Assembly (NCBI GenBank): GCA_965199825.1
Contig: OZ241329.1
Coordinates: 768,001 to 832,000, forward strand
DNA length: 64,000 nucleotides
Direction: 5' to 3'
Source of the DNA: Bdellovibrionales bacterium
GTDB lineage: Bacteria; Bdellovibrionota; Bdellovibrionia; Bdellovibrionales; UBA1609
The position numbers and the translations under genes are program-made. This document shows positions 30,436 to 60,316 of this stretch, piece by piece (position 1 is the stretch's first letter; each line of letters starts with the position of its first letter). A model generated the notes under the pieces. That model was not told where the DNA came from, made no database searches, and saw only the letters and a program-made list of their open reading frames with translations.

Positions 30436-31110
30436 TCAAAATTTAGTCACCGAAAAACTTTGGGACATCAGTGGCATAGGCGCAGTCATTTTTGCAGCGA
30501 AGGACTGCTTTTGCTCCGGGCACGATTTTTTGAGTGGATCGTTTTTTGATAAAGCGGTTCGAGTGTTCTCCACCATTGTTTCTTGGATGGTTGCCGTACG
30601 CCTTAATCGCTGACTCAGGAGATCACGCGAGCGTTCGAAGTCTTTAAATTCTTCCAAAGTCATAGCAAACCGGATGTCCACCTGAAGTTCATCCCCAGCG
30701 TTATAAAGTCGTGCCCGCTCTTTGAGTTTTTTTGCAGGCGACGCTTTTGCCACTTCTTTCTCAAGTGCGCGCTTGGAGCCCTGTGCAAGTTTCAACCAAT
30801 GCTCGGCATTTTTAGGCGTGATCACACTGCAAATTCGATTGGCTTTAGAGATCGAAAGCTGCCCCGAAGCGATTTGTAATTTGAGCTCAGGGATCAAGGC
30901 ACATTTTTTAGCAACTTTATTAAAAATACTGATGAGCTCTTCAGTCATATTGAGCTTGTTGCAGGTAAAATCAAAAAGTGATCGACTCCCATAAACATAA
31001 TGGGTTTTTGCTCGCCAAACATTTTCGATTGAAAGCACCAATTCCGCATCTGAAATATTTTTGACCGACACAGCCTTGAGTACGCGAAAATAAATTTTTT
31101 GATGATCCAC
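30436..31110 (-). pseudogene. Truncated HNH-family paralog lacking the HNH domain (may still be expressed)
   Basis: Near-identical to 36218..37042 up to NDPLKKSCP, then divergent; no HNH motif. Confidence 0.8.
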
Positions 31111-31346
31111 AATTCGCTCCTACTTAATAAAGCGAAATCTATCAAAAAAAATATCCACTGCAAATTGATATAAATAAATATTGTAGGTTATTGATCGGGC
31201 GAAATTTCCGGTGGTGGCTTTTACTTTGTCAAAAAAATTTGAGCGGGCACGACTCTTTACGTTTAACGCTGAACTCAGCGACACTAACCTATTTTAAAAA
31301 ATCCCAATCTCAACTCGAACACGATCTCTAGACTAAGGAATTAAGA

Positions 31347-31423
31347 GGCTTAAAAGCGAGTTCGGCTTGGCACGCGATTGCGCAGGCAATCGAGTGCCAA
31401 ACGCATGTCTGAGCTTTTAAGCC
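31347..31423. repeat. REP-like hairpin, copy B
   Basis: GGCTTAAAAGCGAGTTCGG...ATGTCTGAGCTTTTAAGCC with inner GATTGC-gcag-GCAATC stem. Confidence 0.75.
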
Positions 31424-32898
31424 CCTTGATTCCCCATTGGCTGACTTAAAAACTGCGAGCCATCAAAACTAACGATTCTTTTATCACCATCAACGATAGT
31501 GGCGACATGGACGGGTCTGCTCCAAATTGCAAAAAGATTTTGTAAGGTCGCATTCATATACTCGCCCTGCATTTCGATACCTTCGTACATGTGCTGAAGC
31601 AGCAGCTCACCTCGATTGTTAAAGTTGGCATCGACCACCGAAATTATGGGTTGGCCAAAATTGGTAAGCTGAAACAAAAACTTCTTTTTGATCAGCTCAA
31701 AATCGCGGGTGTCGACTTCGTATTGGTTGGTGCGCTTATTAAATTTGTAAACAAACATTTTATTTTCGACACAGAACTCTTCGGTCAAAAATTCATCGAT
31801 AAACGTGACGTCGTTGTAGTGCTTGCGGACTTCAAAAATTTTTTTGCGGCCAAGGCCTGTTTGTTTGTCCCAGTTCTTTTTTAGAGAAATGTCGTTGCAC
31901 TCTGACCATTCTCTGCCGAATTGGCCTTTGTTCCAGCGCATCTCGATATTGCGAAAGAGTTCGATGCCCACTTTATAGGGATTGAATCCTGTGGGCGACA
32001 TCGCCATCGTGCCCGCATGACGATCGGCAAAATCAATAATTTCTGAGTCATCCACAATTCGCTCGGTCATCAATTTGGAGTGCCAGTAGGAGGCCCAACC
32101 TTCGTTCATGATTTTGGTCATTCCTTGAGGCGCAAAATAATAGGCCTCATCACGAATGATCGACATAATGTCTTGCTGCCAATTTTTAAGAGGTGCGGTG
32201 TGAATCAAAAATTTGAGAACATCACGCTCGGGAGGAGGGGCAGCAGTCATCTGGTCTTCGCGCTTTTGCATTTCGCGCAAGTATTCGGGCGGATTGATGT
32301 AACCTTCCATATAGTCGCGGTGCACTTTGAGTTTTCCAGGCGCCGACTTTTCACTGGGTGGAGGAAGCACATCTTCTTTTATTTTAATTTGTGAATAGGG
32401 AGAGTAGCGATCGATCAAATTTTCGATGCTTAAGCACTTATCAATAAAATCTTCGACCACATCCACACCCATCCGATCAATGTAGCGGCGGATGCGGGTG
32501 GAGTGATTGGCCATTGCATCCATCATTTTGCGATTGGTCTGCGAAAACCACATATTGTTTTTAAAAAAATCGCAGTGGCCAAATACATGGGCCATCACCA
32601 ATTTTTGATCGATAAATTCATTGCCCTCCATCAGATAGGCGTAACAAGGATCATTGTTGATCACGAGCTCATAGATTTTTGACAATCCATACTCATAACT
32701 TTTGGACATCCGGTCGTATTCCATTCCAAAACGCCAGTGAGGGTAGCGCACCGGAAATCCGCCATAAGAGGCGATCTGATTCATTTGCTCATAAGTGACG
32801 AGCTCAAAAATCGTGTCAAAAAAATCGAGGCCGACATCTGCGGCAATTTTGCAGATCTTTGCGCGCTCGCGTTCCAGTTCGGGAGTGAGGTTTGCCAT
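31417..32898 (-). CDS. spoVR: SpoVR family protein
   Basis: RYPHWRFG, IYELVINNDP, AHVFGH, TKIMNEGWASYWH. Confidence 0.95.
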   Translation of the reverse strand: MANLTPELERERAKICKIAADVGLDFFDTIFELVTYEQMNQIASYGGFPVRYPHWRFGMEYDRMSKSYEYGLSKIYELVINNDPCYAYLMEGNEFIDQKLVMAHVFGHCDFFKNNMWFSQTNRKMMDAMANHSTRIRRYIDRMGVDVVEDFIDKCLSIENLIDRYSPYSQIKIKEDVLPPPSEKSAPGKLKVHRDYMEGYINPPEYLREMQKREDQMTAAPPPERDVLKFLIHTAPLKNWQQDIMSIIRDEAYYFAPQGMTKIMNEGWASYWHSKLMTERIVDDSEIIDFADRHAGTMAMSPTGFNPYKVGIELFRNIEMRWNKGQFGREWSECNDISLKKNWDKQTGLGRKKIFEVRKHYNDVTFIDEFLTEEFCVENKMFVYKFNKRTNQYEVDTRDFELIKKKFLFQLTNFGQPIISVVDANFNNRGELLLQHMYEGIEMQGEYMNATLQNLFAIWSRPVHVATIVDGDKRIVSFDGSQFLSQPMGNQGA

Positions 32899-33987
32899 TT
32901 ATTTTCCCTTGCCGAGAAAATCCTTTATCGACTGCAAAATGCGATCGCGGTTTTCTATACGGCTCATCACAAGGTTTTCTTCATTGGTAAAAGATTTTTC
33001 AAGATCCTTAATAAACTGACCACTGCCGTATTTGCTCTCGACCTGGCCATAGCCAAACATATTTGTTTTTGGCAAAAAGAATTCTTTTAGCAATGCAATA
33101 CAGGCCTTGGTGTCCTCACCGCTCCAATTGTCGCCATCACTAAAATGAAATGGATAAATGTTCCACTGACTTGGAGGGTAATCGGTCTCAATAATTTGTT
33201 TACACAATTTGTAGGCCGAAGAAATCAGAGTTCCGCCCGATTCGGATGTCGAAAAAAACGTTTTCTCGTCAACCTCTTTGGCTGCGGCATCGTGAATAAT
33301 AAAACGGCTGTCGAGTCCTTTGTAGTTTCGTCTGAGCCACGTGTTGATCCAAAAACTCTCGAGGCGAACGATCTCTTTTTGCTCGTCACCCATCGACCCT
33401 GAGACATCCATCATATAAATCACGACCGCATTGGATTGCGGCTTTACCGATTTTTTTGAAGCGCGATACCGAAAATCTCTGCGGATCGGCACGATCACCG
33501 GATTGTTTGGATCATAGTTGCCGGTAGACATATAGCGCTTGAGAGCTTCTTTATAGGAGGATTTAAAATGGCGCAGCGACTCGGGCCCCACTTGCGATCG
33601 ACCGGTATAAGAATGAGTAACGCTATCAATATTTTTATTACCGCGCGACTGAATCCGCGGAAGCTCAAGCTCCTCGCCTAAAATATCGGCAAGCTCTTCA
33701 AAGCTAAGTTCGACTTCGAGCTCATGCTCACCGGGCTGATCGCCGGCTTCGCCCTTGCCCGACTCTTCAACTCCGTCGCCGGGTTGACCTTGTCCTTGGC
33801 CAACTCCACCCGATTGTTTTGGCCCATAACGAAAGCGCGGAATTTCAATCTGTGGGATCGGAATCTTGACGTACTCATTTTCGCGCTTACCGATCATTTC
33901 GCCATGGGTGACATACTTTTTGAAATTCTCTTTGATCCGTCCCCGCACAACATCGCGAAATCGACTGTGATCTTCTCGAATTCCCAT
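32899..33987 (-). CDS. yeaH: YeaH/YhbH (DUF444) vWA protein
   Basis: [24 protein letters not shown]; position between prkA and spoVR. Confidence 0.92.
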
Positions 33988-33991
33988 AAAG

Positions 33992-36079
33992 CTATTTTTT
34001 ATCTTTCACATCACCACGTGCAAAAATGCTGGCCACATAATGGAGCACATCGATTGCCGAGATCTCATCGTAACCGAATTCTTTGATCAATCGAGTTTTG
34101 ACGATGTCGATTTTTTCTTGAGTGTCTTTATCTGTAACAGAGCTCACCAAGGACGTGAGCTTAATGCTGTCTTTTTGATCTTCGAAAAGTTTGAGTTCTA
34201 AAGCCCGATGCAGTCGCTCATTTGTTTTGTAATCAAATTTTTTACCTTCGAGAGACAATGCTCCGATGTAATTCATAATCTCACGGCGAAAATCATCTTT
34301 GCGTGATTCTGGAATTTCAATTTTGTCTTCAATTGATCGCATCAATCTTTCATCCGGCTCATCGTCCTGTCCGGTAAACTGATTTCGTACGCGCTCTTTT
34401 TGTGTGTAAGCCTTGACGTTGTCGATATAGTTTCCACACAAGCGTTGAAGTGCACCTTCGTCAGCCGAAATGGCTCGCTGCACTTCGGATTTAATGATCT
34501 CCTCATACTCTTGCTTCACCACACTTAAGAGTTCGCGGTAATCGGTTTTTAATTCTTCATTCGCAATCAGAGAGTGGTGCTTTAACCCAGCCTCGAGCTC
34601 ATTCATCACCATAAAAGGATTTACCGATCCCTTATTTCTTTGTTGCGCCATCACGATTGCGTTTGAAAGTTTGTCTTGAATGTAGCGAGGAGAAATCCCT
34701 CCAAGCCCTTCGCGTTTTGCATCTTTTCTTAACTCTTTGATATTGTCTTCGGTGTAGCTCGGAAGACTTTTGCCATCATATAATTTAAGTTTTTGAAGAC
34801 GGGTGAGATTTGCTTTTTTTGGTTTTTCTAAACGAGTGAGAATGGCCCACATCGCACCCATTTCAACCGTGTGCGGTGCAATGCTCACACCGCGAAGAAC
34901 CCGGCTATTAAAATCCTTGCGATAGATTTTAACTTCGTCTCGCAATTTTGTGATGTAGGGAATATCAATTTTGACGGTGCGATCCCTTAAGGCTTCCATA
35001 AACTCATTGTCTTGAAGTTTGCGATACTCAGGCTCGTTGGTATGCCCAATAATCACTTCGTCGATATAAGTTTGAGCAAACTTTTTTGGTTTAATTCTGT
35101 GCTCTTGCGAAGCTCCCAAAAGATCATACAGAAACGCGACATCGAGTTTTAAAACTTCAACAAATTCAATCATGCCGCGATTGGCGATATTGAATTCACC
35201 ATCAAAGTTAAATGCTCTTGGATCAGAATCCGATCCATATTCGGCGATTTTGCGATAATTCATATCGCCGGTGAGTTCGGTGGAGTCTTGGTTTTTTTCA
35301 TCTTTGGGTTGAAAGGTTCCGATTCCTACCCGATCGGCTTCGCTTAACACCAATCGTTTGACTCGCACGTGGCTCAAAACTTTTGAAACATCGCCATTAT
35401 AAATATCCATCAGTTTTTTAAAAATAAATCGGCTTGGCGGACAGAGCTCTCCTTTGATCTGCACCCGAAACTCGGTTTTGTTTCCGCGATTAAGTTCTTC
35501 ACAAATTTTGGCGCGCATCTCTTCAGGAATCAGTAGCAGAGGCTCTTCGTGCATCGGACTTGGAAACACTTTGACGTTGGGTCCCAGCACATCTTCAAAG
35601 CGGCCCTCTTCATCAAACCACTCGAAAGTATAAAGGGCACCCTGATCGGTTTTTGCGTATTTCTCCACACCTTGTTTGAGCAAGCGACAGATTGTCGACT
35701 TCGCACTTCCCACAGGGCCATGAAGAAGAATGACTCGCTTTTCGGTTCCATAGCCCAAGGCCGCAGCTCTCAAAACATTGACCAATTTCATCAACGGAAT
35801 TTCTGCGCCGAACACAGCGTCGCGTCCGTCATTTTCTTCGTCATCAAAAAAGCGATAATGGGTCATTTGTTTTTTAACGTCGGTGTAATTCTCAACACCT
35901 TTTTCGATCACAAGATCATACATGCGCTGAAAGGCATTGCGCGTGACCTTTGGATTTTCACGAATCAAATTGAGATAATCATCAAATGTTCCAGACCAAC
36001 TGAGATCTTGAAACATTTTGTTATCTTGTAAGGACTTGATGAGTGCGGAATAATCCACACGACCTGAATTGCCCGCCAT
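33992..36079 (-). CDS. prkA: PrkA/YeaG serine kinase / AAA ATPase
   Basis: [33 protein letters not shown]. Confidence 0.95.
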
Positions 36080-36217
36080 GTGCTAACCTCCTCGAACTTA
36101 CACTTAAGTATGCATGAAAGGCGAAGGGGGTACCAATGAATCTACGACCCCGACTAATGACTAGGAATGCTCTGTAGTGTTCAAAGGGTTTTGCAATGAA
36201 CGGTTGAGCGGCAGCAG

Positions 36218-37042
36218 CTAGTGGCTATTCTGATGGTGGGCACGATGATGCCCCGAACAAAGAATTGTTAGGTTATCTAGTTCGTTCGTCCCGCCTTCTA
36301 ATATCGGTTTGATATGATGAATATCAATATGTCGCCGCTGCTGGCAGCGCACGCCGTTTTCATCAACATGCATGCATTGACTAGCGCATTTGTGCTGAAC
36401 TTGACGCTTGAGGATGACAGTCATTTTTTGTGAGCCAGTTTTCACAGGTGGGCACGATTTTTTTAGTGGGTCGTTTTTTGATAAAGCGGTTCGGGTGTTA
36501 TCTACCATCGTTTCTTGAATCGTTGCCGCGTGTCCTAATCGCTGACTCAAAAGATCACGCGAGCGTTCGAAGTCTTTAAATTCTTCCAAAGTCATAGCAA
36601 ACCGGATGTCCACTTGGAGTTCATCCCCCGCGTTATAAAGTCGTGCACGCTCTTTGAGTTTTTTTGCGGGTGAGGCTTTTGCCACTTCTTTTTCGAGAGC
36701 ACGCTTGGAGCCCTGTGCAAGTTTCAACCAATGTTCGGCATTTTTAGGAGTGATCACACTGCAAATTCGATTGGCTTTGGAGATCGAAAGTTGGCCCGAC
36801 GCAATTTGTGATTTGAGCTGTGGAATGACGGCACATTTTTTAGCAATTTTATTAAAAATGCTGGTGAGCTCTTCAGACATATTAAGTTTGTTGCAAGTAA
36901 AATCAAAAAGTGATCGACATCCATAAACGTAATGGGTTTTTGCTCGCCAAACATTTTCTATTGATAAGACCAATTCAACATCTGAAATATTTTTGGCCGA
37001 CACAGCTTTGAGTGCTCGAGAATAAATTTTTTGATGATCCAC
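36218..37042 (-). CDS. HNH endonuclease with helical (DUF222-like) N-terminal region
   Basis: QC..C..IHHIKP..GG.N...NL..LCSGHHRAHH; GTG start after AGGAG. Confidence 0.88.
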   Translation of the reverse strand: MDHQKIYSRALKAVSAKNISDVELVLSIENVWRAKTHYVYGCRSLFDFTCNKLNMSEELTSIFNKIAKKCAVIPQLKSQIASGQLSISKANRICSVITPKNAEHWLKLAQGSKRALEKEVAKASPAKKLKERARLYNAGDELQVDIRFAMTLEEFKDFERSRDLLSQRLGHAATIQETMVDNTRTALSKNDPLKKSCPPVKTGSQKMTVILKRQVQHKCASQCMHVDENGVRCQQRRHIDIHHIKPILEGGTNELDNLTILCSGHHRAHHQNSH

Positions 37043-37391
37043 AATTCGCTCCTATTTAATAAAGCGAAATATATCATAAAAAATATGCGCTGCAAATTGA
37101 TATAAATAAATATTGTAGGTTATTTCTCAAGCGAAATTTCCGGCGGTGATATTATCTTTATCAAAAGTTTGAGCGGGCACGATACTTGATCGCTAATTCA
37201 AACCGAAACATTTCGCACACCAGTAGACAGCGCTAGCCCTGGTTACAAATCATAGATGATAAAAACGGTGTGGTTTGTTATTCAACCGAAAAAATGATTT
37301 CGTGCATGAAGGTGAAATAAGATATTGGAAAATGTCGCTCAAGCGAGCGGGCACGATCACCGCTACTCATAGATCAGGAATGAAGATCCTG

Positions 37392-37447
37392 AAAAGCGAG
37401 TTCGGCTTGGCATAAGATTGCGAAAGCAATCGAATGTCTGAGCTTTT
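37392..37447. repeat. REP-like hairpin, copy C
   Basis: AAAAGCGAGTTCGGCTTGGCA...GATTGC-gaaa-GCAATC...ATGTCTGAGCTTTT. Confidence 0.75.
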
Positions 37448-37454
37448 AAGCATC

Positions 37455-38090
37455 TCAAGGTTTTTCTAAACTAAACAATCCCTCGCGCGCATCAATCTTA
37501 GGCGAATAGTTTTGAAAGTTCATCTGTAAGCTTCCCAATTCATGCGACACCATGACGGTTCGCTTATCTGCAAATCGGTCGCTCACTTTGATTTCGAGAT
37601 GATGAGGAATTTCTTGGCAAGTTTTTAGCAAACCTTTTTCATCGTTCGAACATTTCCAGTCTGCACTTTGAACAGGTCGATCAAATAAAATATTATAAAA
37701 CCAGTGCGGATCCATTGGGATTGGCAAAACGTTTTTTAGACTCTCTGGTTTTGCGGGCCCAACAAAAAACTTTTTCTGAGGGACTACGACGTACCGAAGC
37801 TCGTCGCCATTCAAAACAATTGTTGCAACATGCCCACCAAGACTTGAGGTGAGATCAATGCGCAAATGCTCGTCGCTGACCGCATTGGCTTTCATGTAAA
37901 GAATAAAAGTTTTTTGATTTTTAAGATCGCGAACCAAAACCTTGGCTTCAAAATGCCCTGAGGTTTTGTCGGATAATTTTACGGGTGTTGTTTGACAGTT
38001 AGTGAGAAGCAGGCTCGCGCAAAGTGGTATCGACCACTTGATGATCCACTGCTGCCAGTTTGCTACGGATTTCTTGAAGTTTCTTTTCAT
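37455..38090 (-). CDS. LolB-like lipoprotein (start uncertain)
   Basis: LLLTNC lipobox; LRIDL..SLG beta-rich pattern; follows a large TPR gene as lolB often does. Confidence 0.55.
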   Translation of the reverse strand: MKRNFKKSVANWQQWIIKWSIPLCASLLLTNCQTTPVKLSDKTSGHFEAKVLVRDLKNQKTFILYMKANAVSDEHLRIDLTSSLGGHVATIVLNGDELRYVVVPQKKFFVGPAKPESLKNVLPIPMDPHWFYNILFDRPVQSADWKCSNDEKGLLKTCQEIPHHLEIKVSDRFADKRTVMVSHELGSLQMNFQNYSPKIDAREGLFSLEKP

Positions 38091-39840: not shown

Positions 39841-40006
39841 TTCTGGTCAAAGGCTTGGGCAATTCGCCAAGGACCAGGTTTTAAGCTCGACTTGACAGGT
39901 TGTGACGCGCGGGAATATGTTCAGCGCGATTTGGGGGGCCGCTTTGGTCACCTTTTGTGACCAGTCCAGGGTCGACATTTAGTGGTTATTCTTTGAGGGA
40001 GGCATT

Positions 40007-40543
40007 GTGAATCAAGAGACGGTAATGACGAGCAAGGCAAACAGCAGAACTAAAATAATCAAGCGATATCAAAATCGAAAACTCTACGACACTCAGCAAT
40101 CCTGTTACGTGACTTTAGACGACATCGCAAAAATGATTCGCTCGAGCGAAGACGTGATGGTGATCGATAATAAAAGCAAAAATGATATTACTGCTGCAAC
40201 TCTCACCCAAATTATTTTTGAATCCGAAAAGAAAGCTTCGCAGTACGCTCCCTTGTTTACGCTTCGTGAAATTATCCAAAACGGAAACGGCAGCATCTCT
40301 AGCTTTTTGGCAAAACTTGGCGCATTTCCTAAAGACTATGCCGAAAAACAAACCCAAGCTTTGGGCGAGATGATGAACTCCGATCGTAACGACTCACGCA
40401 GCTCTTACGATGATGTGAAGCAAACCCTCGAAGAACGTGTCGCAACCGCAGCCAACGCGGCCACGTCGTCAGATTCAAGCCAACGCGGCTACAATGAGCT
40501 TACTCCTGAGCTTCCATCGTCAAATAAAGGTTTTAACAACTAA
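40007..40543 (+). CDS. PhaR-like PHA synthesis regulator DNA-binding protein
   Basis: IIKRYQNRKLYDT..S.YVTL, DIT..TLTQIIFE. Confidence 0.85.
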   Translation: MNQETVMTSKANSRTKIIKRYQNRKLYDTQQSCYVTLDDIAKMIRSSEDVMVIDNKSKNDITAATLTQIIFESEKKASQYAPLFTLREIIQNGNGSISSFLAKLGAFPKDYAEKQTQALGEMMNSDRNDSRSSYDDVKQTLEERVATAANAATSSDSSQRGYNELTPELPSSNKGFNN

Positions 40544-40550
40544 TCATTTA

Positions 40551-40587
40551 TCTGCGTGCAACTTTTTGTTCACGCAGAGTCCTTTTT
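40551..40587 (+). terminator. Probable intrinsic terminator
   Basis: TCTGCGTG...CACGCAGA stem followed by T-run after stop. Confidence 0.5.
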
Positions 40588-40902
40588 AATTTTTGCGGCA
40601 TTTTGATTTTGAACTGATGTTGATCGTGAGCACGACAGCTTTGTGGGCACGTAAAAATCTCGAGAGGTGTCAGTCTTTAAATGACTGGGCACGATCAGTT
40701 GAAACTATCGACTCAACAAGAGTTTAGAACACCCTTAAAGATTTCGTTAGAAGCGGGCACGATAATATCTCCGGCGATGTTATTTTATGGGTCAATTAAA
40801 AATTAGCGGGCACGATAAATTCTATCTGATTATAATACCGCGGAGATGTCATTCAAGCTTCTCTCCCACATCATGTGCACGATCAAAGGCTTCTCGAAAA
40901 AA

Positions 40903-41785
40903 GTGGGCACGACAACTTACTGCGGGCACGACAACTTACTTGCGGACACGATAACTTACTTGCGGACACGATAACTTACTTGCGGACACGATAACTTACT
41001 TGCGGACACGATAACTTACTTGCGGACACGATAACTTACTTGCGGACACGATAACTTACTTGCGGACACGATAACTTACTTGCGGACACGATAACTTACT
41101 TGCGGGCACGATAACTTACTTGCGGGCACGACAACTTACTTGCGGGCACGACAACTTACTTGCGGGCACGACAACTTACTTGCGGGCACGACAACTTACT
41201 TGCGGGCACGACAACTTACTTGCGGGCACGACAACTTACTTGCGGGCACGACAACTTACTTGCGGGCACGACAACTTACTTGCGGGCACGACAACTTACT
41301 TGCGGGCACGACAACTTACTTGCGGGCACGACAACTTACTTGCGGGCACGACAACTTACTTGCGGGCACGACAACTTACTTGCGGGCACGACAACTTACT
41401 TGCGGGCACGACAACTTACTTGCGGGCACGACAACTTACTTGCGGGCACGATCACTTACTTGCGGGCACGATCACTTACTTGCGGGCACGATCACTTACT
41501 TGCGGGCACGATCACTTACTTGCGGGCACGATCACTTACTTGCGGGCACGACAACTTACTTGCGGGCACGACAACTTACTTGCGGGCACGACAACTTACT
41601 TGCGGGCACGATCACTTACTTGCGGGCACGATCACTTACTTGCGGGCACGATCACTTACTTGCGGGCACGATCACTTACTTGCGGGCACGATCACTTACT
41701 TGCGGGCACGATCACTTACTTGCGGGCACGATCACTTACTTGCGGGCACGATCACTTACTGTGGGCACGACAACTTACTTGCGGC
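40903..41785. repeat. 20-bp tandem array, consensus TGCGGGCACGACAACTTACT
   Basis: 42 full units at 40921-41760 plus terminal variant units. Confidence 0.98.
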
Positions 41786-42151: not shown

Positions 42152-42181
42152 AGAATCTCCTTTAAAACAAAATTACTACTA

Positions 42182-48492: not shown

Positions 48493-49996
<1,504 letters not shown>

Positions 49997-50054
49997 CTAT
50001 AAAAGTCTCTTTAGGACTTTAGAGCAATCTTAAAATTGGAGTCAATACGCCAGT

Positions 50055-51707: not shown

Positions 51708-51713
51708 ATGACC

Positions 51714-52166
51714 TCAAATCATTTTTGAGGTGCGCACCGCAAAGACTTTTTCTTTTGAGAGCTCACCTTTTAATAGACTGTCATAAGATTCAGACTCAGA
51801 AAAGAGGCAGCGTTGAAAATGTTTTTCTCGCGACAGACGAATCGCCGTATTGGCAAGCTGGAGCGCAATTTCGGGGTTTAAAAAATTCATCGTCTCCACC
51901 CACAAGGTCTGGGTCAGCCCTTGGTAAAACAATAAGGGCTGGGCTAAAAAATAACCCAAAAGTTGATCTTGATCAAAAAGACCAAAGCTCCAACCCAATG
52001 GGAGATAGTGGCTCAATGATTCATCTCTTGATCTTGAATGCCACTGGGCAAATTGCAGCTCCATCGGATCATTCTGCGATTGAGAAAGTACATTTTGATC
52101 AAAGCTTTTAAGTTGTTCGCGATGCTGTTCGGTTAAAATAATAAATTCCATGTCTTTGGCTAGCAC
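51714..52166 (-). CDS. Hypothetical protein (GNAT-like fold possible)
   Basis: 150 aa ORF co-oriented with glpD. Confidence 0.65.
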   Translation of the reverse strand: MLAKDMEFIILTEQHREQLKSFDQNVLSQSQNDPMELQFAQWHSRSRDESLSHYLPLGWSFGLFDQDQLLGYFLAQPLLFYQGLTQTLWVETMNFLNPEIALQLANTAIRLSREKHFQRCLFSESESYDSLLKGELSKEKVFAVRTSKMI

Positions 52167-52207
52167 GTCACTAGACGAACGAAAAGGTCTCTGTTGTAAT
52201 CCTTAAG

Positions 52208-52942
52208 ATGACACCACAAAAATTATCCCAAATTTTAAAAGCGGTCGATGACGTCCTTAACTCTACTCCCCCGCCACACTACGCCGCATTTGATGCCGAT
52301 GGCACTTTGTGGAACACCGATTTAGGCGAGGCGCTTTTTAAATATCAAATCAAGCATCACCTTGTGCCGCTTCCGCCCAAAGCTTTCGAATATTATTTTG
52401 AAACAAAAGAAAATGTGTCCCACGAAAAAGCCTACCTCTGGCTTGCCCAAATCAACAAAGGGGTGTCACTGGAACAAGTGCGGGCTTGGGCAAAAACATC
52501 GGTGAATGAACTTGATCCTGTACCCGTGTTTGAAAATCAAAAAATCTTGATTGAGCATTTGGTAAAACGAAACGTAAAGGTTTTTATCGTAACTGCTTCA
52601 ATCAAGTGGGCGGTTGAGCCAGGTGCCCGGTTTTTTGGTTTAAATTACGACAATGTGATCGGCATTCGCACTAAGGTGAACGATGGTATCATTACCGATG
52701 TTCAAGAGGGACCTCTCACTTATCGCAAAGGAAAGGTGGATGCTTTGTTGATCGAAACCGGAGGAAAGCCCCCATTTTTATCTTCAGGCAACACCGAAGG
52801 CGATCTTTCGTTGCTTGAATCGGCCACACATCTTCGGATCGTGATGGCAGCCTCACCAAAATCAAATGATAATTATCAAACCGAGCGGCGCTTACTCGAT
52901 ATCGCCAAAGAGCGCGGCTGGTTTTATCACGACTTTTTATAA
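52208..52942 (+). CDS. HAD-family hydrolase (SerB-like)
   Basis: FDADGTLW, IVTAS, GKV, GNTEGD. Confidence 0.88.
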   Translation: MTPQKLSQILKAVDDVLNSTPPPHYAAFDADGTLWNTDLGEALFKYQIKHHLVPLPPKAFEYYFETKENVSHEKAYLWLAQINKGVSLEQVRAWAKTSVNELDPVPVFENQKILIEHLVKRNVKVFIVTASIKWAVEPGARFFGLNYDNVIGIRTKVNDGIITDVQEGPLTYRKGKVDALLIETGGKPPFLSSGNTEGDLSLLESATHLRIVMAASPKSNDNYQTERRLLDIAKERGWFYHDFL

Positions 52943-54244
52943 ACTCTCGAGTGTATGAATATCTTTTGGTGCTTGTGCGGTCATCACCTCGCATCCGGTA
53001 TCGGTCACAAGCACATTGTCCTCGATACGAATGCCGATTCCGCGCAATTCTTTGGGCGCTGTTTCGTCAGACGCCGGAATATAAATTCCTGGCTCAATCG
53101 TAAAGGTCATCGAAGCTTCAAGCTTGCGGGGTTGACCATCAGTCTCGGTCAAACCTGCATCATGAACATCCATACCTAAAAAATGCCCCACCCCATGAGG
53201 ATAATATTTTTTAAAAGACTGATCAGCAATGCGGTCTTTACGAGTTCCACGCAGCAGCCCCTCTTCAATCATCAGATCGGTGAGATACTCAACGGTTCGA
53301 TCTTGCATGCTTCGCAAAGTGACTCCAGGCTTAACCACCGCAATCAGTTCTTTTTGCAATTTTAAGATGCGTTCGTAAAGCCGACGCTGGGGTTGATTAA
53401 ATTTTTCAGACACAGGAAAAGTTCTGGTAATATCCCCACCAAAATAATTGTACTCGGCTCCTGCATCGACCAAAAGCAAATCGCCCGCTTTCAGATTTTC
53501 ATCATTAAAAACATAATGCAGAGTTGTCGCCGCATCGCCACCCGCAACAATCGAGCCATAGCCCTCGCGTGTAGCCCCGCGCTCAAGAATTGCCTTTAAA
53601 AAAACACCTTGAAGAGTGCGTTCATTGACCCCGGGCTTAGTGGCCTTCATCACTTCGACGTGAGCCTCCGCAGTAATTTGACAAGCTCGCTTAAGCCACT
53701 CGATTTCTATTTTTGATTTCCGAACACGCATTTCACCAAGTAAAGGTGTTGCATCATGAATCGCGGGCAATCCTTTACCGCTTCGACCGCGCTTGGCTTT
53801 GATTGACTCAAGAATTTTTAGAAACTGAGAATCGAATTCGCGATTTTTAAAAAAACTATAATAAATGTCATCCACTTCGTTCAACAGCTCAGGCACCATC
53901 TTTTCGATTTGATCAAAGGTGTAACATTGATCCATCGCAAATAAATCTTTGGCCGCATCAGGACCGTAGCGAAAGCCGTCCCAGGTTTCACGTTCGAGAT
54001 CTTTTTTGCGCACAAATAAAACAGATTCGGGATTTCTGCCAGGGCGAAAAACAAAAAGACTTTCGGGCTCATCAAATGCGGTTAAATAAAATAAGTTTGT
54101 ATCTTGCCTGTACGGATGATGCACATCATGATTGCGAATCATCTCAGGGTGTGAGGCAATCACCAGTGCCTTACCGGTCATGCGATGAGCAAGTTCGAGT
54201 CGTCTATTTTTGAAGTAAGAAATTTCAACCGTGGGAATTCTCAT
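52937..54244 (-). CDS. pepP: Xaa-Pro aminopeptidase
   Basis: TLHY, DAGAE, DITRT, HGVGHFLGMDVHD, TIEPG, GIRIED. Confidence 0.95.
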   Translation of the reverse strand: MRIPTVEISYFKNRRLELAHRMTGKALVIASHPEMIRNHDVHHPYRQDTNLFYLTAFDEPESLFVFRPGRNPESVLFVRKKDLERETWDGFRYGPDAAKDLFAMDQCYTFDQIEKMVPELLNEVDDIYYSFFKNREFDSQFLKILESIKAKRGRSGKGLPAIHDATPLLGEMRVRKSKIEIEWLKRACQITAEAHVEVMKATKPGVNERTLQGVFLKAILERGATREGYGSIVAGGDAATTLHYVFNDENLKAGDLLLVDAGAEYNYFGGDITRTFPVSEKFNQPQRRLYERILKLQKELIAVVKPGVTLRSMQDRTVEYLTDLMIEEGLLRGTRKDRIADQSFKKYYPHGVGHFLGMDVHDAGLTETDGQPRKLEASMTFTIEPGIYIPASDETAPKELRGIGIRIEDNVLVTDTGCEVMTAQAPKDIHTLESL

Positions 54245-54246
54245 TT

Positions 54247-55068
54247 TTAAAATCCATACTTTTTGGCAATGGCTTGAGCTTGTTTGCGGCTCGCCTTTTC
54301 GCCAATCACAATGGCTTCGCGTCGTTTTTGGGTCTCGGCCAAATCAATACCTGGAGTGGCAATTAAAAATGCTTCGTCAAACATATTAGCTTTAAGAAGT
54401 TGCCCTTTAATTTGCGAATACGCTTCAATCCCTTGGGCTGGAGTTTTTAAAACATCAATGTAAATCAAAATATCAAAGTTTTGTGAACGAAGGTTTTGTA
54501 CAAGATCGGCAACAAAAGTCAGAGGTGGAGGTGCGGTCATTGTGTCGACACATTTTTTGAGAGTCTCAGAAAATTCACCCCGATCTTGGAGCGAAAAATC
54601 TTTGAGATCAGCACAAAAAAATCGCACAGGGGATTGCTCGATCGATCGACCTTTTAAATTGTCTTGATAAAAATGGATCAGCGGATCTTTAGGTTTTGAA
54701 AAAAACGAATGCGAGCTCTCTTTGTTTTCGAGTTTATAAAGCTTCCATTCTGCATCATGAATTTGACCATTTTGAGCATACAGTGCTGCAACCAAACTGC
54801 CCCACTCGATTCCAACAACAGCTTCCACCGGCACGCGCGACCTTAAGAGTTCTTTTAAAACTCCAAGCTCGGCAAAGCTTCGAGCATGACCTGGACCAAA
54901 CACAACCGCAACATGATGAATGGGTTTTTCAACAATCACCGGCTTTGGAGCCTCGACCGGTTGCGGCTGCTCTTGGGGAAGCACAACACCATCTTCGGTT
55001 TTAATTTTAGGATGAGTGGCGCAACCCACCAAAAAAAGTAGCGTAAAGAAAAAATTCTTGGTTGCCAT
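54247..55068 (-). CDS. Patatin-like lipoprotein with degenerate catalytic motifs
   Basis: LVGC lipobox; GPGHARSFAELGVL; GIEWG. Confidence 0.65.
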   Translation of the reverse strand: MATKNFFFTLLFLVGCATHPKIKTEDGVVLPQEQPQPVEAPKPVIVEKPIHHVAVVFGPGHARSFAELGVLKELLRSRVPVEAVVGIEWGSLVAALYAQNGQIHDAEWKLYKLENKESSHSFFSKPKDPLIHFYQDNLKGRSIEQSPVRFFCADLKDFSLQDRGEFSETLKKCVDTMTAPPPLTFVADLVQNLRSQNFDILIYIDVLKTPAQGIEAYSQIKGQLLKANMFDEAFLIATPGIDLAETQKRREAIVIGEKASRKQAQAIAKKYGF

Positions 55069-55768
55069 CTTGCCCCTTTATTCGACTGGGCACGTATCTC
55101 AAATTTGTAAATCCAAAGTCTTCAAATGCCCGCTCCATCTTAAACTTTAGGTTTTCATAAAGTCTATGGTCTTTTACGATTCCTTTTTTGTTTAAATCTT
55201 TTTTTGTGAGTTCAAATTGTGGTTTTACAAGAATCAAAATTTTTGAATCCCGTGTCAATAACCCTAAAAGATGCGGAACAACTTTAAGACACGAGGTAAA
55301 CGAAACATCACACACGATCAAATCAAAAGGTGCTTCATTTAAAATCTCAGAATGTGTAGACGCCTGTTGCGCCGAAAGATGATCAAAATACTTCAGAGAG
55401 TTTTTTAATTTTTTGTTCAGCTGAGAATGACCGACGTCAATTCCAACTCCAGCCCTTGCACCTTGTTGCAATAAGCAATCAGAAAATCCGCCGGTGGATA
55501 AGCCCACATCTAAAAATTTTAATCCCGTCACATCGATTTGCAAATCCTGAAGTGCTCCTTCGAGCTTTAATCCACCACGCGAAACATAGCGCAAACAGTT
55601 TTCACTGCTCAATCGGATTTGATTTGTATTGGTAAATTCACTGGGTTTTAAAGCCGTCTGCCATTTTTCTTTAAACACTTCGACCTGACCCAATCGAATC
55701 AGCTCTTGGGCTTTTGACCTTGAGGGTGCGAGTTCGAGCTCAACCAATTTTTGATCAAGCCGACTCAC
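55007..55768 (-). CDS. tlyA: TlyA rRNA methyltransferase
   Basis: S4 domain RLD..SRSKA, YVSRGGLKL, LVKPQFE, GNQEF. Confidence 0.93.
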   Translation of the reverse strand: MSRLDQKLVELELAPSRSKAQELIRLGQVEVFKEKWQTALKPSEFTNTNQIRLSSENCLRYVSRGGLKLEGALQDLQIDVTGLKFLDVGLSTGGFSDCLLQQGARAGVGIDVGHSQLNKKLKNSLKYFDHLSAQQASTHSEILNEAPFDLIVCDVSFTSCLKVVPHLLGLLTRDSKILILVKPQFELTKKDLNKKGIVKDHRLYENLKFKMERAFEDFGFTNLRYVPSRIKGQDGNQEFFLYATFFGGLRHSS

Positions 55769-56646
55769 GACTCGCGGCTTTGATTAAATTCAATTAAAAA
55801 ATGAAGATCTTCAGGCTCGGCAAATTCGCTGGTCAGCTCAATCGATTTTTTTGAGAGCTCTTGCAACAATTGAACAGCACCTTCGCGGCTTAATACATTG
55901 ATGTAGTTTACGGGCTCAGGACTTTCAGATTTAAAATCGAGCAAATCATCTTTAAGTTGAAATGCAAAACCAAGTGTAATCCCAAGCTCTCGCGCGGCTT
56001 CGCGCGTAGAAATTGAAGCTTGTGCAACAACTGCCGCACCTTCACAGGCGGCACGAATCAATGCTCCCGTTTTCATTTCGTGTAGTGTCTGAACGAACGC
56101 GGCACCATGTAGTTTGGTCGGAGAAATATCAAGCGCTTGTCCGCCCACCATCCCGCGCACACCGGCGGCTTCAGACAAAATTTTAATCAGTTCAACTGCA
56201 GTTTCTGGAGGATAGTGTCGTGCGAGTGCCCCAAAGGCTTCGGTCAATAGAGCATCACCCGCAAGAAGAGCCATCGCCTCGCCATACACTTTGTGATTGG
56301 TGGGTTTACCTCTACGAACGTCATCATTGTCCATGCAGGGAAGATCATCGTGAATCAAAGAATAGGCATGGATAAATTCAAGCACGCCTGCCCAAGTCAT
56401 CACATCAAGCACTGATCCATTGAGACATTGGGTCACGATGCATGTGAGCAGCGGACGAAATCGTTTTCCACCCGACAGCAACGAATAGCGCAACGATTCA
56501 ATCAGTTGCTCTTGGCCCGGCCCTTCGGGCAACCACTCCGAAGACATTCGATCCAGAGTGTGCTCGATGGTTTTTAAGAGAGGGTAAAATCGCTCTTCGA
56601 TGGGATTACTCTTGGATAACAAAGGTTTCTGTAACGAGAGTTCCAT
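55765..56646 (-). CDS. ispA: Polyprenyl (farnesyl) diphosphate synthase
   Basis: GGKRFRP, SLIHDDLPCMD, KTGAL, FQLKDDLLD. Confidence 0.93.
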   Translation of the reverse strand: MELSLQKPLLSKSNPIEERFYPLLKTIEHTLDRMSSEWLPEGPGQEQLIESLRYSLLSGGKRFRPLLTCIVTQCLNGSVLDVMTWAGVLEFIHAYSLIHDDLPCMDNDDVRRGKPTNHKVYGEAMALLAGDALLTEAFGALARHYPPETAVELIKILSEAAGVRGMVGGQALDISPTKLHGAAFVQTLHEMKTGALIRAACEGAAVVAQASISTREAARELGITLGFAFQLKDDLLDFKSESPEPVNYINVLSREGAVQLLQELSKKSIELTSEFAEPEDLHFLIEFNQSRES

Positions 56647-56827
56647 CAGCCTCCACTTTTAATAATGTCTGAACCTTTTGTTCGACTTCGCCGAGTTGCA
56701 CGTGGCATTCCCGCGACAACCGCACACCTTCTTCAAAAGTTTTGAGCGAATCCTCAAGACTGAGCTCACCCTTTTCCATAGTGCGCACAATTTCTTCGAG
56801 ACGGTTTAATTTTTTTTCGAAATCCAT
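56606..56827 (-). CDS. xseB: Exodeoxyribonuclease VII small subunit
   Basis: FE..L.RLEEIV..ME.GEL.LE...FEEG. Confidence 0.93.
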   Translation of the reverse strand: MDFEKKLNRLEEIVRTMEKGELSLEDSLKTFEEGVRLSRECHVQLGEVEQKVQTLLKVEADGTLVTETFVIQE

Positions 56828-58185
56828 TATTTTACTCCTGCTTGAAATTCTCCGTCAGCCACACGGATCGTGATCACATCACCAGATGAAACATCATTTT
56901 TTGAACGAACAATTTTATTTTCTTTTGCAACGATCGCATAGCCTCGATCCACAACCTTGAGTGGACTTAAAACATCGAGCACTTGAGCCGAAGTCCCAAT
57001 GCGATTTTTTTGACTCTTAATTAAAGCAACTAACGCACCCTCGAGTTGGCTCCGAAAAAACCGCAAACGTTCCGATTTTAATTTTACAACTTCGCGCGGC
57101 GAAACAAAACGCGAATTGAGCATGGTCACTCGCAGGCGATCATCACTGATTGATCGCTGTATCGCATTTTCGAGTCGGCTTTTGAGCTCATCAAGACGAA
57201 GCATCGTGTCTTGCAATCGCCGCCGTGGATCGACCAGCTGCCGAGTCAAATGATCAAGACGTTGCCGACGTATTTTTAACCAATGGGCTTTAAGATTGCG
57301 ACATCGTGCAAGCAGTTGGCGAAGTGTGTTTGTCAATTCACTCGCACTTTTGACCACGAGCTCGGCGGCGGCCGAAGGTGTGGGCGCTCGTAGGTCGGCA
57401 ACAAAATCGGCAATAGTAAAATCAATCTCATGACCAACCGCCGAAATTGTGGGAACGCGCGAAGCTGCGATGGCTCGAGCAACCGGCTCGGTGTTAAACG
57501 CCCACATATCTTCAATGCTGCCGCCACCTCGACCGATAATCATCGCGTCGATGTCGTTGATCCGTTGGGCCAGCTCAATCGCTTTAACAATCGATTTTGT
57601 GGCTTGCTCACCTTGTACGACAGTGGGGATCACAGTAATTTTAAGCCCACGAAATCGGCGATGAAGAACATTTAAAATATCACGAATCGCCGCACCTGTT
57701 GGCGAAGTGACCACCGCAATATGCTTTGGGTGTGCCGGAAGCGGCCGTTTTCGCGATCGATCAAACAGACCTTCAAGCGACAGTTTTTTCTTGAGTTGTT
57801 CAAAAGCAAGCTGCAAAGCCCCTGCACCGACAGGCTCCATCGCTTCACAAAAAACTTGGTAGTTCCCGCGCGGTTCATACACCGTGATTTTACCGCGCAC
57901 CAAAACTTCCATTCCATCAGCAGGACGGAATTTTAACTTTTGGTTGTTGGCTTTGAACATGATCGCATTGATTTGGGATTTTTGATCTTTTAAACTAAAA
58001 TAGTAGTGGCCAGAAGAATGCGGTTTAAAGTTTGAGATCTCACCTTTAATCCAGATTAAATTAAATTTGTTTTCTAAGGTCTGACGGATCAGCTTGTTTA
58101 AATCAGATACAGAAAAAACCTGTGGCTGTTCGTCTTTAGGGATTGTGTTGTCGATTGTATTAAAATCGAGCTCGATTTGCTCCAT
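56827..58185 (-). CDS. xseA: Exodeoxyribonuclease VII large subunit
   Basis: SGHYYFSLKD, GRGGGSIED, GHEID, APTPSAAAE. Confidence 0.97.
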   Translation of the reverse strand: MEQIELDFNTIDNTIPKDEQPQVFSVSDLNKLIRQTLENKFNLIWIKGEISNFKPHSSGHYYFSLKDQKSQINAIMFKANNQKLKFRPADGMEVLVRGKITVYEPRGNYQVFCEAMEPVGAGALQLAFEQLKKKLSLEGLFDRSRKRPLPAHPKHIAVVTSPTGAAIRDILNVLHRRFRGLKITVIPTVVQGEQATKSIVKAIELAQRINDIDAMIIGRGGGSIEDMWAFNTEPVARAIAASRVPTISAVGHEIDFTIADFVADLRAPTPSAAAELVVKSASELTNTLRQLLARCRNLKAHWLKIRRQRLDHLTRQLVDPRRRLQDTMLRLDELKSRLENAIQRSISDDRLRVTMLNSRFVSPREVVKLKSERLRFFRSQLEGALVALIKSQKNRIGTSAQVLDVLSPLKVVDRGYAIVAKENKIVRSKNDVSSGDVITIRVADGEFQAGVK

Positions 58186-58215
58186 GAAGGCGCAAGGATA
58201 AAATGATGTGGTAGC

Positions 58216-58431
58216 TCAGTCAATAAGCAGATTTTGCAGAGACCAGAGGCTTCCTACGATGAGACAGACGAACCCAAGGTGACGGTGCCCTTGAATTTGT
58301 TTTACAATCGCTTGTGGGAGCCGCTCTTCGGCTGCCTCGATCAGTTTTGGCATGTTCAACACGATTGTCATTACCGCGCCGTAACCAAAGACAAAAAATG
58401 GAAAAATCAAGTCGATTTCTTTGTACGTCAT
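58216..58431 (-). CDS. Small two-TM hypothetical protein
   Basis: 71 aa ORF with two hydrophobic segments upstream of xseA. Confidence 0.55.
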   Translation of the reverse strand: MTYKEIDLIFPFFVFGYGAVMTIVLNMPKLIEAAEERLPQAIVKQIQGHRHLGFVCLIVGSLWSLQNLLID

Positions 58432-58749
58432 ACTTTCGTTATCGGTTGAGGCGGATCAAAATGTTACAGGACCTTCAGACATATTTTCTTACGGCATAAC
58501 AATTGATCACTAGCTGTTGGGGTTGGGATTTGCTAAAGTGGAATCTGTTCTTGTGGACTGAAGACAACGTAAATCCTATAAAGAATATTTATGGGGCCTG
58601 TCCCTGGGGATGGTGTGCATGCTCAACTTCGCATTGAGAAGCCTAAAGTTCCTATTATGGGCACCCACTTTAAAAAACATGGGTTTTGCGGATCGATCAG
58701 TTCCACAAGAATTTTTTTTTGCCCTTGGGTGGTTTTCGTTTGTTGGGTT

Positions 58750-59280
58750 TCGTGCCCGCTTTTTTTTGGGCGGTTGAGTTTGTCGTGCCCACATCTTTAT
58801 TTGATTGGCCGAAAAAATCTTTGTTTTTAAAAAGTTTGGTGTTTGTGGAACCATTTCCTTTTTTTGCCTGGCGTGGATTTGAAGCTAAAAATTTTGTCGT
58901 GCCCCCTTTGTGTTTCGGTTGGGCCGAAGTTTTTCGTGACCGTCTTTAGATTCATTAGAGCGAATTTTTTTGTTGTGCCCATTCCTTTAAATCAAATGGA
59001 ATCTTTGTTTTTAGAAGTTTGGTATTTTGTAGGATCATTTAATTGTCATGTTCGGATTTTGTTGGTGGCCGAAGTCTGTCGTGCCCGCCTTGAGATTGTT
59101 TTTTTGTCGTGCCCGCTTCTTAAAATCATAAGGAATTTTTTGTTCTTAGAAGTTTGGTGATTTATAGGAGACTTTACTTTTCTTACCCAGCGCAGATTTA
59201 AACCTAAAGAATTTTGTCGTGCCCATCTTTAGATTCATGAGACCGAATTTTTTGTCGTGCCCGCACAAATTTTCTTGACG
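58750..59280 (+). repeat. Degenerate cluster of TCGTGCCC motifs upstream of the HNH gene
   Basis: Motif at 58750, 58783, 58897, 59079, 59107, 59217, 59255; variants near 58934 and 58973. Confidence 0.88.
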
Positions 59281-59473
59281 GGATTTTGTTATTGCTTAAA
59301 TGGCCCTGGCTTCTATTTTCAAGCCAAATACCCTTTTTCTGCTCCAAATCATCTCGCAGACATCACCAAGCTCAACAAAGACGCCAACAAATGAACCTGT
59401 GATTCACATCCGACAAGCTGTAAAAATGAAAGATTAGAAACCCGTGGTAATCTCCTCTAAATAGGAGATATTT

Positions 59474-60316
59474 ATGGATCATTCAAAAATTCATCTCAAT
59501 GCGTTGACCGCTGCTGATGCTCATCGCAAAACCGAAATGGAATTGCTCAATGCTTTAGAGCTTGTTTGGAAAAACAAAACCTTTTCGCAATATGGTTGCC
59601 GATCGTTGTTTGAATATTCAACCAAACACCTCAAATTATCCGAAGAGATGGCAAGTATTGTAAACAAAATTGCAAAAAAATTTACTGAACTTCCTGAACT
59701 TAAAGCAGGCATGGAGTCTGGTGAACTTTCACTCTCAAAAGCGAATCGAATCACTGCGGTTGTCACAAAAGAAAATGTGGATCACTGGATGAATTTGGCC
59801 AAGGGCACCAAACGCAATCTCGAAAAACAAATTTCCATGGTCCAACCCGAGAAAGCAATTCCGGAGCGGGCACGACATCAAAAAGCGGGCGACACTTTAC
59901 GAGTCGCGATTTCTTATTCGATGACTCAAGAGGAATTTGCAATGTTTGAACGGACACAAGATCTTTTGAGCCAAAAATTAAAGCGACCGGCCTCGATCGG
60001 TGATGTTCATCTTGCAGCTCTTAAAGAGCTCCAGCAAAAGCTCGACCCGTTAGAAAAACCGATTCGCCAAAAATCAGCGGGCACGACAAAATTGACCATC
60101 GCACTAAAGCGAAAAATCCATCACAACCTGAAAAGTCAGTGCAGTCATATTGATCAATCCGGCGAGCGTTGCCCCGCGCGACGCCACCTTGATGTTCATC
60201 ACATCATTCCTAAATCGCAAGGCGGATCAGATAACGAAGAAAACCTGACCCTTTTATGTTCAGGACATCATCGTGCTCACCATCGAAAGGCTAGGAACTC
60301 CCAAAAAGCGTTTTGA
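59474..60316 (+). CDS. HNH endonuclease, divergent paralog of 36218..37042
   Basis: MDH.KI, YGCRSLF, LS.SKANRI, LDVHHIIP..GG.D...NL.LLCSGHHRAHH. Confidence 0.9.
   Translation: MDHSKIHLNALTAADAHRKTEMELLNALELVWKNKTFSQYGCRSLFEYSTKHLKLSEEMASIVNKIAKKFTELPELKAGMESGELSLSKANRITAVVTKENVDHWMNLAKGTKRNLEKQISMVQPEKAIPERARHQKAGDTLRVAISYSMTQEEFAMFERTQDLLSQKLKRPASIGDVHLAALKELQQKLDPLEKPIRQKSAGTTKLTIALKRKIHHNLKSQCSHIDQSGERCPARRHLDVHHIIPKSQGGSDNEENLTLLCSGHHRAHHRKARNSQKAF

Follow-up and report, generated by a model that had tools for sequence, protein, structure and literature searches.

Chromosomal repeats such as REP13E12, which join a DUF222 domain to an HNH nuclease domain, came to light with the first mycobacterial genome. 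In actinobacteria these REP13E12/DUF222-HNH genes occur in multiple copies on the chromosome and encode a DUF222-type domain at the N-terminus and an HNH domain at the C-terminus. A section of a 2026 preprint describes the REP13E12 regions as without a defined function and places them among the most often gene-converted loci in M. tuberculosis (PMC13061034), and a passage of another article counts REP13E12/HNH/DUF222 among repetitive elements (PMC10589994). A further passage reports two Peredibacter strains with 10 and 13 HNH endonucleases, with 6 at shared sites (PMC13147790). In the literature we found no description of a cognate motif, of motif-bounded units or of tandem arrays for the DUF222-HNH family. 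Here we analyze a family of related genes in a Bdellovibrionales bacterium (source genome G000; assembly of 2.84 Mb, 43.8% G+C), beginning with a stretch of 64,000 nucleotides, hereafter the window, that corresponds to C1:768001-832000 of this genome. The REP13E12/DUF222-HNH repeat family is its closest known relative, and the G000 family appears to be a variant of these known but unexplained repeats. Its proteins are shorter, at ~270 amino acids (aa), and have no direct Pfam DUF222 match. Its copies are framed by a short DNA motif, TCGTGCCC, which they also carry inside their coding sequence.

The window holds three members of the family (Table 1). A tblastn search of G000 found 27 paralog loci dispersed over the chromosome, with 45-84% aa identity to P0002, a full-length copy in the window, and one HNH-only remnant. 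The cassette measures ~1.05 kb. An earlier note on this DNA, made from the sequence alone, had taken three open reading frames (ORFs) for paralogs, and this is what they are: P0001 and P0002 have a C-terminal HNH domain, and the ORF at 30436-31110 (P0003) is without the HNH part. Every motif site listed in that note is also present, both upstream of the genes (31243, 37173, 37347 and a cluster at 58750-59264) and as scattered 8-mers (14296, 42314, 48640 and 61336).

The motif is far more frequent than chance would give. The 10-mer TCGTGCCCGC occurs 48 times in the window, where shuffled sequence predicts 0.12 copies, and its 8-mer core GGGCACGA occurs 60 times with 1.44 expected. The earlier note missed that the 10-mer is itself the core of a longer unit of 18-20 bp, (A)AGTTGTCGTGCCC(G/A)CTCAA. 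On the chromosome the 10-mer occurs 300 times and the 8-mer 522 times, and the four small contigs of the assembly contain neither. Mapping the motif genome-wide, as had been proposed, shows that it is unevenly spread. More than half of the 10-mers (158 of 300) lie within 1.5 kb of a paralog start, an area that makes up 2.9% of the chromosome, and another 119 lie inside nine gene-less intergenic tandem arrays. Together these account for 277 copies and leave 23 elsewhere. Isolated 8-mers number 57 in the genome, about as many as shuffling predicts.

The motif occurs in 24 of the 118 tandem arrays that Tandem Repeats Finder (TRF) called in the genome, including nearly all of the high-copy chromosomal arrays. 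The repeating units of the motif arrays, 16-25 bp long, are variants of (A)AGTTGTCGTGCCC(G/A)CTCAA. The 20-bp array of the window, previously placed at 40903-41785, was found at 40905-41784 with a period of 20, 44.1 copies and 98% matches. Two readings of the gene-less arrays and their unit were rejected. The arrays are unlikely to be relics of cassettes, as no HNH promoter, leader or coding remnant lies alongside them. The unit is probably not a sigma-54 promoter, since its GGCAC-TTGC spacing, judged by eye against the consensus, is wrong. Contigs from sequencing runs break at the paralogs and mix copies, so that only two differences were obtained: one contig from run X3, apparently of a related strain, is without one 28-bp motif unit at 59077, and run X4 gave a motif-like loose end. 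The sample behind run X2 likewise seems to contain a relative.

Within the cassettes the motif recurs at particular positions. A sense-strand copy lies upstream of the gene at all 27 paralog loci, in some of them as arrays of 7 to 26 units with periods of 18-42 bp. The loci follow a common upstream plan, in which 11-56 nt of A/T-rich DNA separate the motif copies from a conserved TTGAC, and a ~200-nt leader and a strong ribosome-binding site come after it. Inside the gene, the motif is found at +394 on the antisense strand in 20 of 27 loci, in the linker between the two domains in 25 of 27 (+585 sense or +605 antisense), and as an exact copy at the 3' end, +785 to +797 sense, again in 25 of 27. 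The intragenic copies in the window (30518, 30709, 36238, 36450, 59868 and 60079) had escaped the earlier note.

Codon use was compared in an alignment of 24 full-length copies of the 27, excluding the truncated copy, a deletion copy and a copy with an early stop. At the 3' motif, His is encoded by CAT in 24 of 24 copies, Arg by CGT in 24 of 24 and Ala by GCC in 23 of 24. At the +394 motif, the Arg codons are CGG in 18 of 20 and CGA in 21 of 23. Codon use is more varied at invariant columns outside the motif, with 4-6 codons in each of six other Arg columns and 3-4 in Ala columns. The rate of synonymous substitution (dS) exceeds 1 for most paralog pairs; the closest pair has a dS of 0.14. The motif is held fixed at synonymous positions, which amounts to constraint at the nucleotide level. 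The linker motif is found on either strand, where it encodes S-C-P or A-G-T-T. Its retention on either strand, in a stretch without protein constraint, points to recognition of double-stranded DNA and not RNA.

In young duplicates and incomplete copies, the boundaries and breakpoints of the cassettes coincide with the motif. DNA homology across the paralogs has its upstream limit at about -55 (or -232) and its downstream limit at about +815. The youngest pair (dS 0.14) is similar from the promoter-proximal motif to 5 nt past the 3' motif, and its protein tails after His-His are unrelated, being read from flanking DNA. Two other young groups show the same motif-bounded pattern within 0-16 nt. 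In a four-member group, homology begins no more than 8 nt from a motif copy and ends ~15 nt past the 3' motif; in a third young pair, it extends through a series of tandem duplicates of the gene's own 3' end, which carry the motif, and stops after them. This motif-bearing 3' end is tandemly duplicated downstream of two copies. Incomplete copies break at the motif as well. When the truncated P0003 is compared with P0001, identity drops at the 3' edge of the linker motif, from 16-18 of 20 positions before this point to 3-7 of 20 just beyond, and the HNH-only remnant at C1:1029899 starts at the linker motif.

The C-terminal domain of the encoded protein is an HNH nuclease domain. Pfam HNH (PF01844) matches the C-termini of P0001 and P0002 above the gathering score (E 4.5e-6 and 3.9e-9), and profile matches in the PDB are to the HNH domains of McrA and IscB. 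The beta-beta-alpha-metal motif is present with its catalytic His, Asn and His and its Cys/His zinc ligands: C223, C233, H242, H243, N257, C262, H265, H266 and H270 are invariant in 33 aligned sequences. An AlphaFold model built from a 33-row alignment has a mean predicted local distance difference test score (pLDDT) of 84.8, falling below 50 at residues 199-204 in the linker. In this model, a structure aligner matched residues 203-278 to HNH domains, and Foldseek returned no match at E up to 0.001. The paralogs are under purifying selection. For the pairs with dS below 2.5, which number 172 of 276, the ratio of nonsynonymous to synonymous substitution rates has a median of 0.14 and ranges from 0.06 to 0.30.

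The N-terminal domain appears to be related to DUF222 at a distance. PF02720 (DUF222) gave no match to P0001-P0003 at E up to 0.1. A distant relative, P0035, does match PF02720, at residues 30-132, and also carries a RuvA_C domain; its DUF222 part aligns with residues 25-132 of P0002 at 27% identity (pairwise E 1e-24). One of the 33 members of alignment A1 matches DUF222, and 'DUF222 domain-containing' is the name of one of the nearest Atlas clusters. When the N-terminal domain alone was used as a profile, 20,394 cluster representatives matched at E up to 0.001, of which 10,349 reached E up to 1e-10, so the domain family is large. Structural alignment of modeled residues 16-125 with VIA-align gave KorB (8qa8, Z 7.1, root mean square deviation (rmsd) 3.4 over 96 residues; 1r71, Z 6.6, 2.9 over 94), Spo0J (1vz0, Z 6.3, 2.8 over 90) and ParB (6s6h, Z 7.2, rmsd 10.3 over 111), all below a Z of 8, a range in which the tool warns that a match can be a common helical arrangement. 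These values are below the safe level, and the helical, ParB/KorB-like helix-turn-helix fold predicted for this DUF222-related domain is therefore a lead and not a result.

We lean, by a modest degree, toward reading the family as selfish nuclease cassettes whose protein would bind and cut its own motif. Support for this comes from computed observations, namely the genome-wide association, the constraint on the motif and the motif-coincident boundaries described above, and the subfamily sites in some relatives and the filled and empty site described below. The earlier note had suggested a self-propagating element or a nuclease or DNA-binding system that recognizes the motif, and the in-silico tests favor that suggestion; from them we infer binding, cleavage and copying. 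In the proposed pathway, a cassette would start at the motif upstream of the promoter-like TTGAC, as in the young duplicates, and end at the motif written in the codons of the last catalytic residues (H-R-A-H). The N-terminal domain would bind the motif within its 18-20-bp unit, and the HNH domain would nick or cut at or beside it. Repair between motif copies could then copy cassettes to new motif sites, and the same repair could yield half-cassettes and deletions and multiply the motif to form tandem arrays. If the protein binds beside the promoter, it may also regulate its own gene. A broader proposal is that the family stands for a new class of prokaryotic mobile element, made of single-gene cassettes in which an HNH nuclease with a helix-turn-helix reader, in place of a transposase or recombinase, would recognize sites of 16-20 bp at the edges of and within its own gene and spread by break-induced copying between them; we advance it tentatively and regard it as doubtful.

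Autoregulation could also be the whole story. The motif would then be the operator of the family's own DNA-binding domain, and repression loops between upstream and intragenic sites would keep a toxic nuclease off. On this view the copies would reflect normal gene-family expansion without mobility, and the arrays would be by-products or protein sinks. Operators can lie inside coding regions, as lac O2 and gal OI do. In most copies the motif stands 11-56 nt upstream of the conserved TTGAC, in some relatives sites lie upstream of the gene as well as within it, the sites are subfamily-specific within one genome, and the predicted fold resembles that of KorB, which has operators beside promoters. 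However, the spacing to the promoter is variable, and the palindromes of relatives lie 160-900 bp upstream or downstream of the gene. Autoregulation also leaves unexplained the duplication boundaries that coincide with the motif, the half-cassettes, the nine arrays that have neither gene nor promoter, and the filled and empty site. As a complete explanation we hold it to be unlikely.

Homologs of the family are common among relatives of the source organism. They are present in 52 of the 109 genomes of its taxonomic family (G000 included), often with 10-26 matches. The nearest named protein relatives are in metagenome-assembled genomes (MAGs) of Pseudobdellovibrionaceae, and homologs are also found in Myxococcota MAGs. 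A metagenome scan for close relatives gave matches at the level of the HNH motif only, and plasmid and phage collections contained no family match at E 1e-5. Many of the relatives' loci carry palindromes of 16-20 bp, such as ACTGTGCCCGGGCACAGT, ACTGGGCCCGGGCCCAGT, ACAAGTCCCGGGACTTGT and GTCCCACGTGGGAC, usually one upstream and one in the linker or just downstream of the gene. In the complete genome G009, the 14-mer TCTGCCCGGGCAGA occurs nine times, always within 1.7 kb of one of three paralogs. Within single genomes the palindrome differs by paralog subfamily, with two identical copies per locus; G053, for instance, has ACTCTG-CCCGGG-CAGAGT, ACTCTG-TGCGCA-CAGAGT and ACTCTG-TTTAAA-CAGAGT. Where the same palindrome occurs in different genomes, the putative recognition helices are similar. 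A palindromic form of the motif was sought in G000 and none was found; the G000 motif resembles one half-site (GTGCCCG) of the relatives' palindromes.

Another explanation is that the motif or palindromes are recognized by a different factor, either a transcription factor or a recombinase of the host, perhaps one of the Xer-like tyrosine type, with the HNH gene as its cargo or target. The form of several palindromes, two arms around a variable 6-bp center (such as ACTCTG-NNNNNN-CAGAGT, with centers CCCGGG, TGCGCA, TTTAAA and TACGTA), resembles recombinase core sites, and direct motif repeats at both cassette ends fit site-specific recombination. We nevertheless consider this explanation improbable. 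The gene in these loci always comes from this one family, and the sites occupy conserved intragenic positions. The arms vary between subfamilies in one genome, which a single host factor would not tolerate, and the pairing of palindrome with recognition helix by subfamily is likewise hard to reconcile with such a factor. A recombinase gene was seen neither at the loci nor in the 30 ORFs of the window that were scanned. These ORFs, from 25916-64000, are housekeeping genes or have no Pfam family, which agrees with the earlier statement that no transposase, Cas, RAYT or reverse transcriptase gene is visible.

A comparison of filled and empty sites, also proposed in the earlier note, was possible at one syntenic site in a related genus. 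A 14-kb stretch around one paralog of genome G054 is syntenic in all 18 genomes of that genus, and the site was compared in 5 of the other 17. In G054, the cassette lies within 1884 bp between two convergent genes, with palindromes 64-70 bp from either flank, the last in reverse orientation. In G047, the site is empty and the two stop codons are ~20-45 bp apart. A homolog with 23% identity occupies the same site in G061, 400 bp of unrelated DNA lies there in G048, and in G057, where ~2.3 kb separates the flanking genes, nothing matches the G054 HNH protein. At this site G063 carries ~800 bp of unrelated inserted DNA (L083, G063:C1:185400-189400) that is bounded by perfect terminal inverted repeats; labeled by eye, its ORF looks like an IS200/RAYT-type transposase. 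Presence and absence at an otherwise conserved site, as expected of homing-type genes, was thus observed at one site, in another genus.

An element acting at the level of RNA was also weighed, given that IscB/OMEGA systems combine a RuvC-HNH protein with a guide RNA. In this reading, the motif or palindromes would act in transcripts as hairpins for stability or processing, or as a guide-like RNA. We judge it very improbable: the relatives' palindromes could form hairpins, each gene has a leader of ~200 nt and the HNH domain scores weakly against the IscB model, but the NCBIfam score is 29-32 bits against a cut-off of 175 and covers the HNH part only, the G000 motif is non-palindromic and lies on both strands within the gene, an Rfam scan of the window found only 6S RNA, no promoter-like sequence is near the gene-less arrays, and compensatory change affects only 3 of 24 predicted leader pairs in 11 leaders of genome G044. 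The strongest G044 leader helix pairs a segment of the -35/-10 spacer with the Shine-Dalgarno region and is thus unlikely to exist in RNA; on these two counts a leader RNA structure was rejected. At the G044 loci (L032-L042), the copies have in common an inverted repeat, CTTTCGCG / CGCGAAGG, with the promoter spacer on one side and the ribosome-binding site on the other, and a divergent small ORF upstream seems to be common to them as well. No CCCGGG-type palindrome was seen at these loci.

Several points weigh against the selfish-cassette reading. An HNH nuclease alone cannot carry out strand transfer, which leaves the copying step without known enzymology; with no known strand-joining ability in the nuclease, host repair would have to join the strands. 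The low fold scores of the N-terminal domain count here too. Upstream of the genes, a consensus promoter scan of the window did not call the TTGAC promoter, and the variation of 11-56 nt between motif and TTGAC means that there is no fixed operator geometry. P0001 and P0003 remain homologous beyond the proximal motif for another ~170-270 bp upstream, a stretch that includes a separate 70-nt hairpin repeat. The 3' boundary is also the end of the conserved protein domain, which alone would end detectable homology in older pairs. Segment-wise and sliding-window identity of the G000 paralogs revealed no mosaic or recent gene conversion. The idea that homologs would each have their own co-varying motif held for some relatives, and there the motif differs even between subfamilies of one genome. 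A strict test found a repeated palindrome in only 20 of 78 distinct full-length loci outside G000, and two multi-copy genomes, G044 and the TPBS_17 MAG, gave no clear motif. The palindrome is therefore a common feature and not a universal one. Finally, the filled and empty site comes from 5 of 17 other genomes of another genus, and none from a close relative of G000.

The family shares traits with other known systems and departs from each. Like free-standing HNH homing endonuclease genes, it combines a DNA-binding module with HNH, is intergenic and under purifying selection, and shows presence and absence at a syntenic site. A homing gene, however, is as a rule present once, and by inserting it destroys or removes its target, whereas G000 has 27 copies that each keep the site around and inside themselves. 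REP/RAYT systems also have a nuclease-type gene flanked by a short repeat on which it supposedly acts, and their motifs are lineage-specific. Their enzyme is an HUH Y1 transposase (IS200-like) and here it is HNH, with Pfam giving only HNH families for the paralogs; REP sequences are hundreds of dispersed solo copies, whereas the G000 motif is at genes and in nine arrays. ParB/KorB/SopB proteins offer a third likeness in the tentative resemblance to a helix-turn-helix fold, the 16-20-bp palindromes of relatives, sites in the own gene and tandem arrays of sites. sopC is a tandem array of SopB sites. Unlike these proteins, the G000 family has a nuclease, is present in 27 copies, and has no detected ParB N-terminal CTPase domain and no partner ATPase gene.

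Table 1. Coordinates of cassettes, motif sites and repeats in the window (C1 where stated)
Feature	Position	Strand	Remarks
P0002, full-length paralog, 280 aa	59474-60316	+	DUF222-like N-terminal domain, linker, HNH
Seven sense-strand TCGTGCCC copies upstream of P0002	58750-59264	+	In degenerate repeats
TTGAC (-35-like)	59275-59279	+	12 nt past proximal motif; followed by ~190-nt leader and AGGAG; conserved in paralogs and other genomes
P0002 intragenic motif, +394, antisense	59868-59875	-	Codons E-R-A-R
P0002 intragenic motif, +605, antisense	60079-60086	-	Disordered linker (codons 202-205)
P0002 3'-end motif position	60271-60278	+	H-R-A-H codons; one mismatch (TCGTGCTC)
P0001, full-length paralog, 274 aa	36218-37042	-	
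P0001 intragenic motifs	36450-36457; 36238-36245		+585, sense; +797, sense
Two sense-strand motifs upstream of P0001	37173-37182; 37347-37356	-	
P0003, truncated paralog, 224 aa	30436-31110	-	N-terminal half only; HNH part absent
Motif upstream of P0003	31243-31252	-	
P0003 intragenic motifs	30518; 30709		Linker motif at 30518-30525
Gene-less array	40687-41784	-	Scattered motifs 40687-40931, then tandem 20-bp units 40905-41784; between convergent genes
Hairpin repeat copies	31352-31405; 37392-37434; C1 near 982907, 983050, 983374, 984514 and 1029719		

Several features were observed around the cassettes. A 6S RNA gene at 58544-58716 (+) (Rfam RF00013, 61 bits) ends ~35 bp before the P0002 motif cluster, and another copy, at C1:2539304, directly follows a tRNA-like 3' end. 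Cassettes seem to be placed beside RNA genes and between convergent genes. The hairpin repeat, AAGCTCAGACAT...CCAAGCCGAACTCGCTTTT, is ~70 nt long. Of its ~7 copies, three lie a short way upstream of an HNH cassette or of the HNH remnant.

Other observations concern the motif itself. Four giant ORFs (1443-2347 aa; C1:201074-234374 and 1327041-1331372) hold 4-5 motif 8-mers or 10-mers each, on a single strand. Several of the 23 remaining 10-mers fall within these ORFs and are probably coding repeats with no relation to the cassettes. An exact 10-mer is present at 32007-32016 (+) inside a spoVR-like gene, ~900 bp upstream of the truncated paralog and in opposite orientation. A second word, CACC(G/T)CCGGAG, stands a few bases ahead of some motif copies (for example window 40770-40790; C1:512618, 1249028 and 1566046), frequently at the gene-proximal edge of an array, and together with the motif it may form a larger composite unit of ~75 bp.

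On the scale of the chromosome, the extremes of cumulative GC skew lie near 0.96 Mb (minimum) and 2.34 Mb (maximum), and motif orientation does not switch relative to replication direction at either of them. Paralogs are sparse between 1.6 and 2.5 Mb (1 of 27), and the gene-less array at 953715-953895 lies at the skew minimum. Contigs C3, C4 and C5 are internally periodic, with TRF rows that recur about every 3.46 kb, 2.1 kb and 12.2 kb, respectively, and look like small circular elements assembled as concatemers.

The hypothesis that emerges is that of a site-specific nuclease acting on sites that frame its own gene. With one protein family, one motif, 27 copies, and boundaries and breakpoints that coincide with the motif, this hypothesis is concrete and directly testable. 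If the hypothesis is true, it would describe a new route by which genes spread within a genome and provide many natural pairs of a nuclease and a long recognition site. On the broader proposal of a new class of mobile element, in which every subfamily would have evolved a site of its own, the family could serve as a natural library of nucleases specific for long sites, and the REP13E12/DUF222-HNH repeats would be explained as well.

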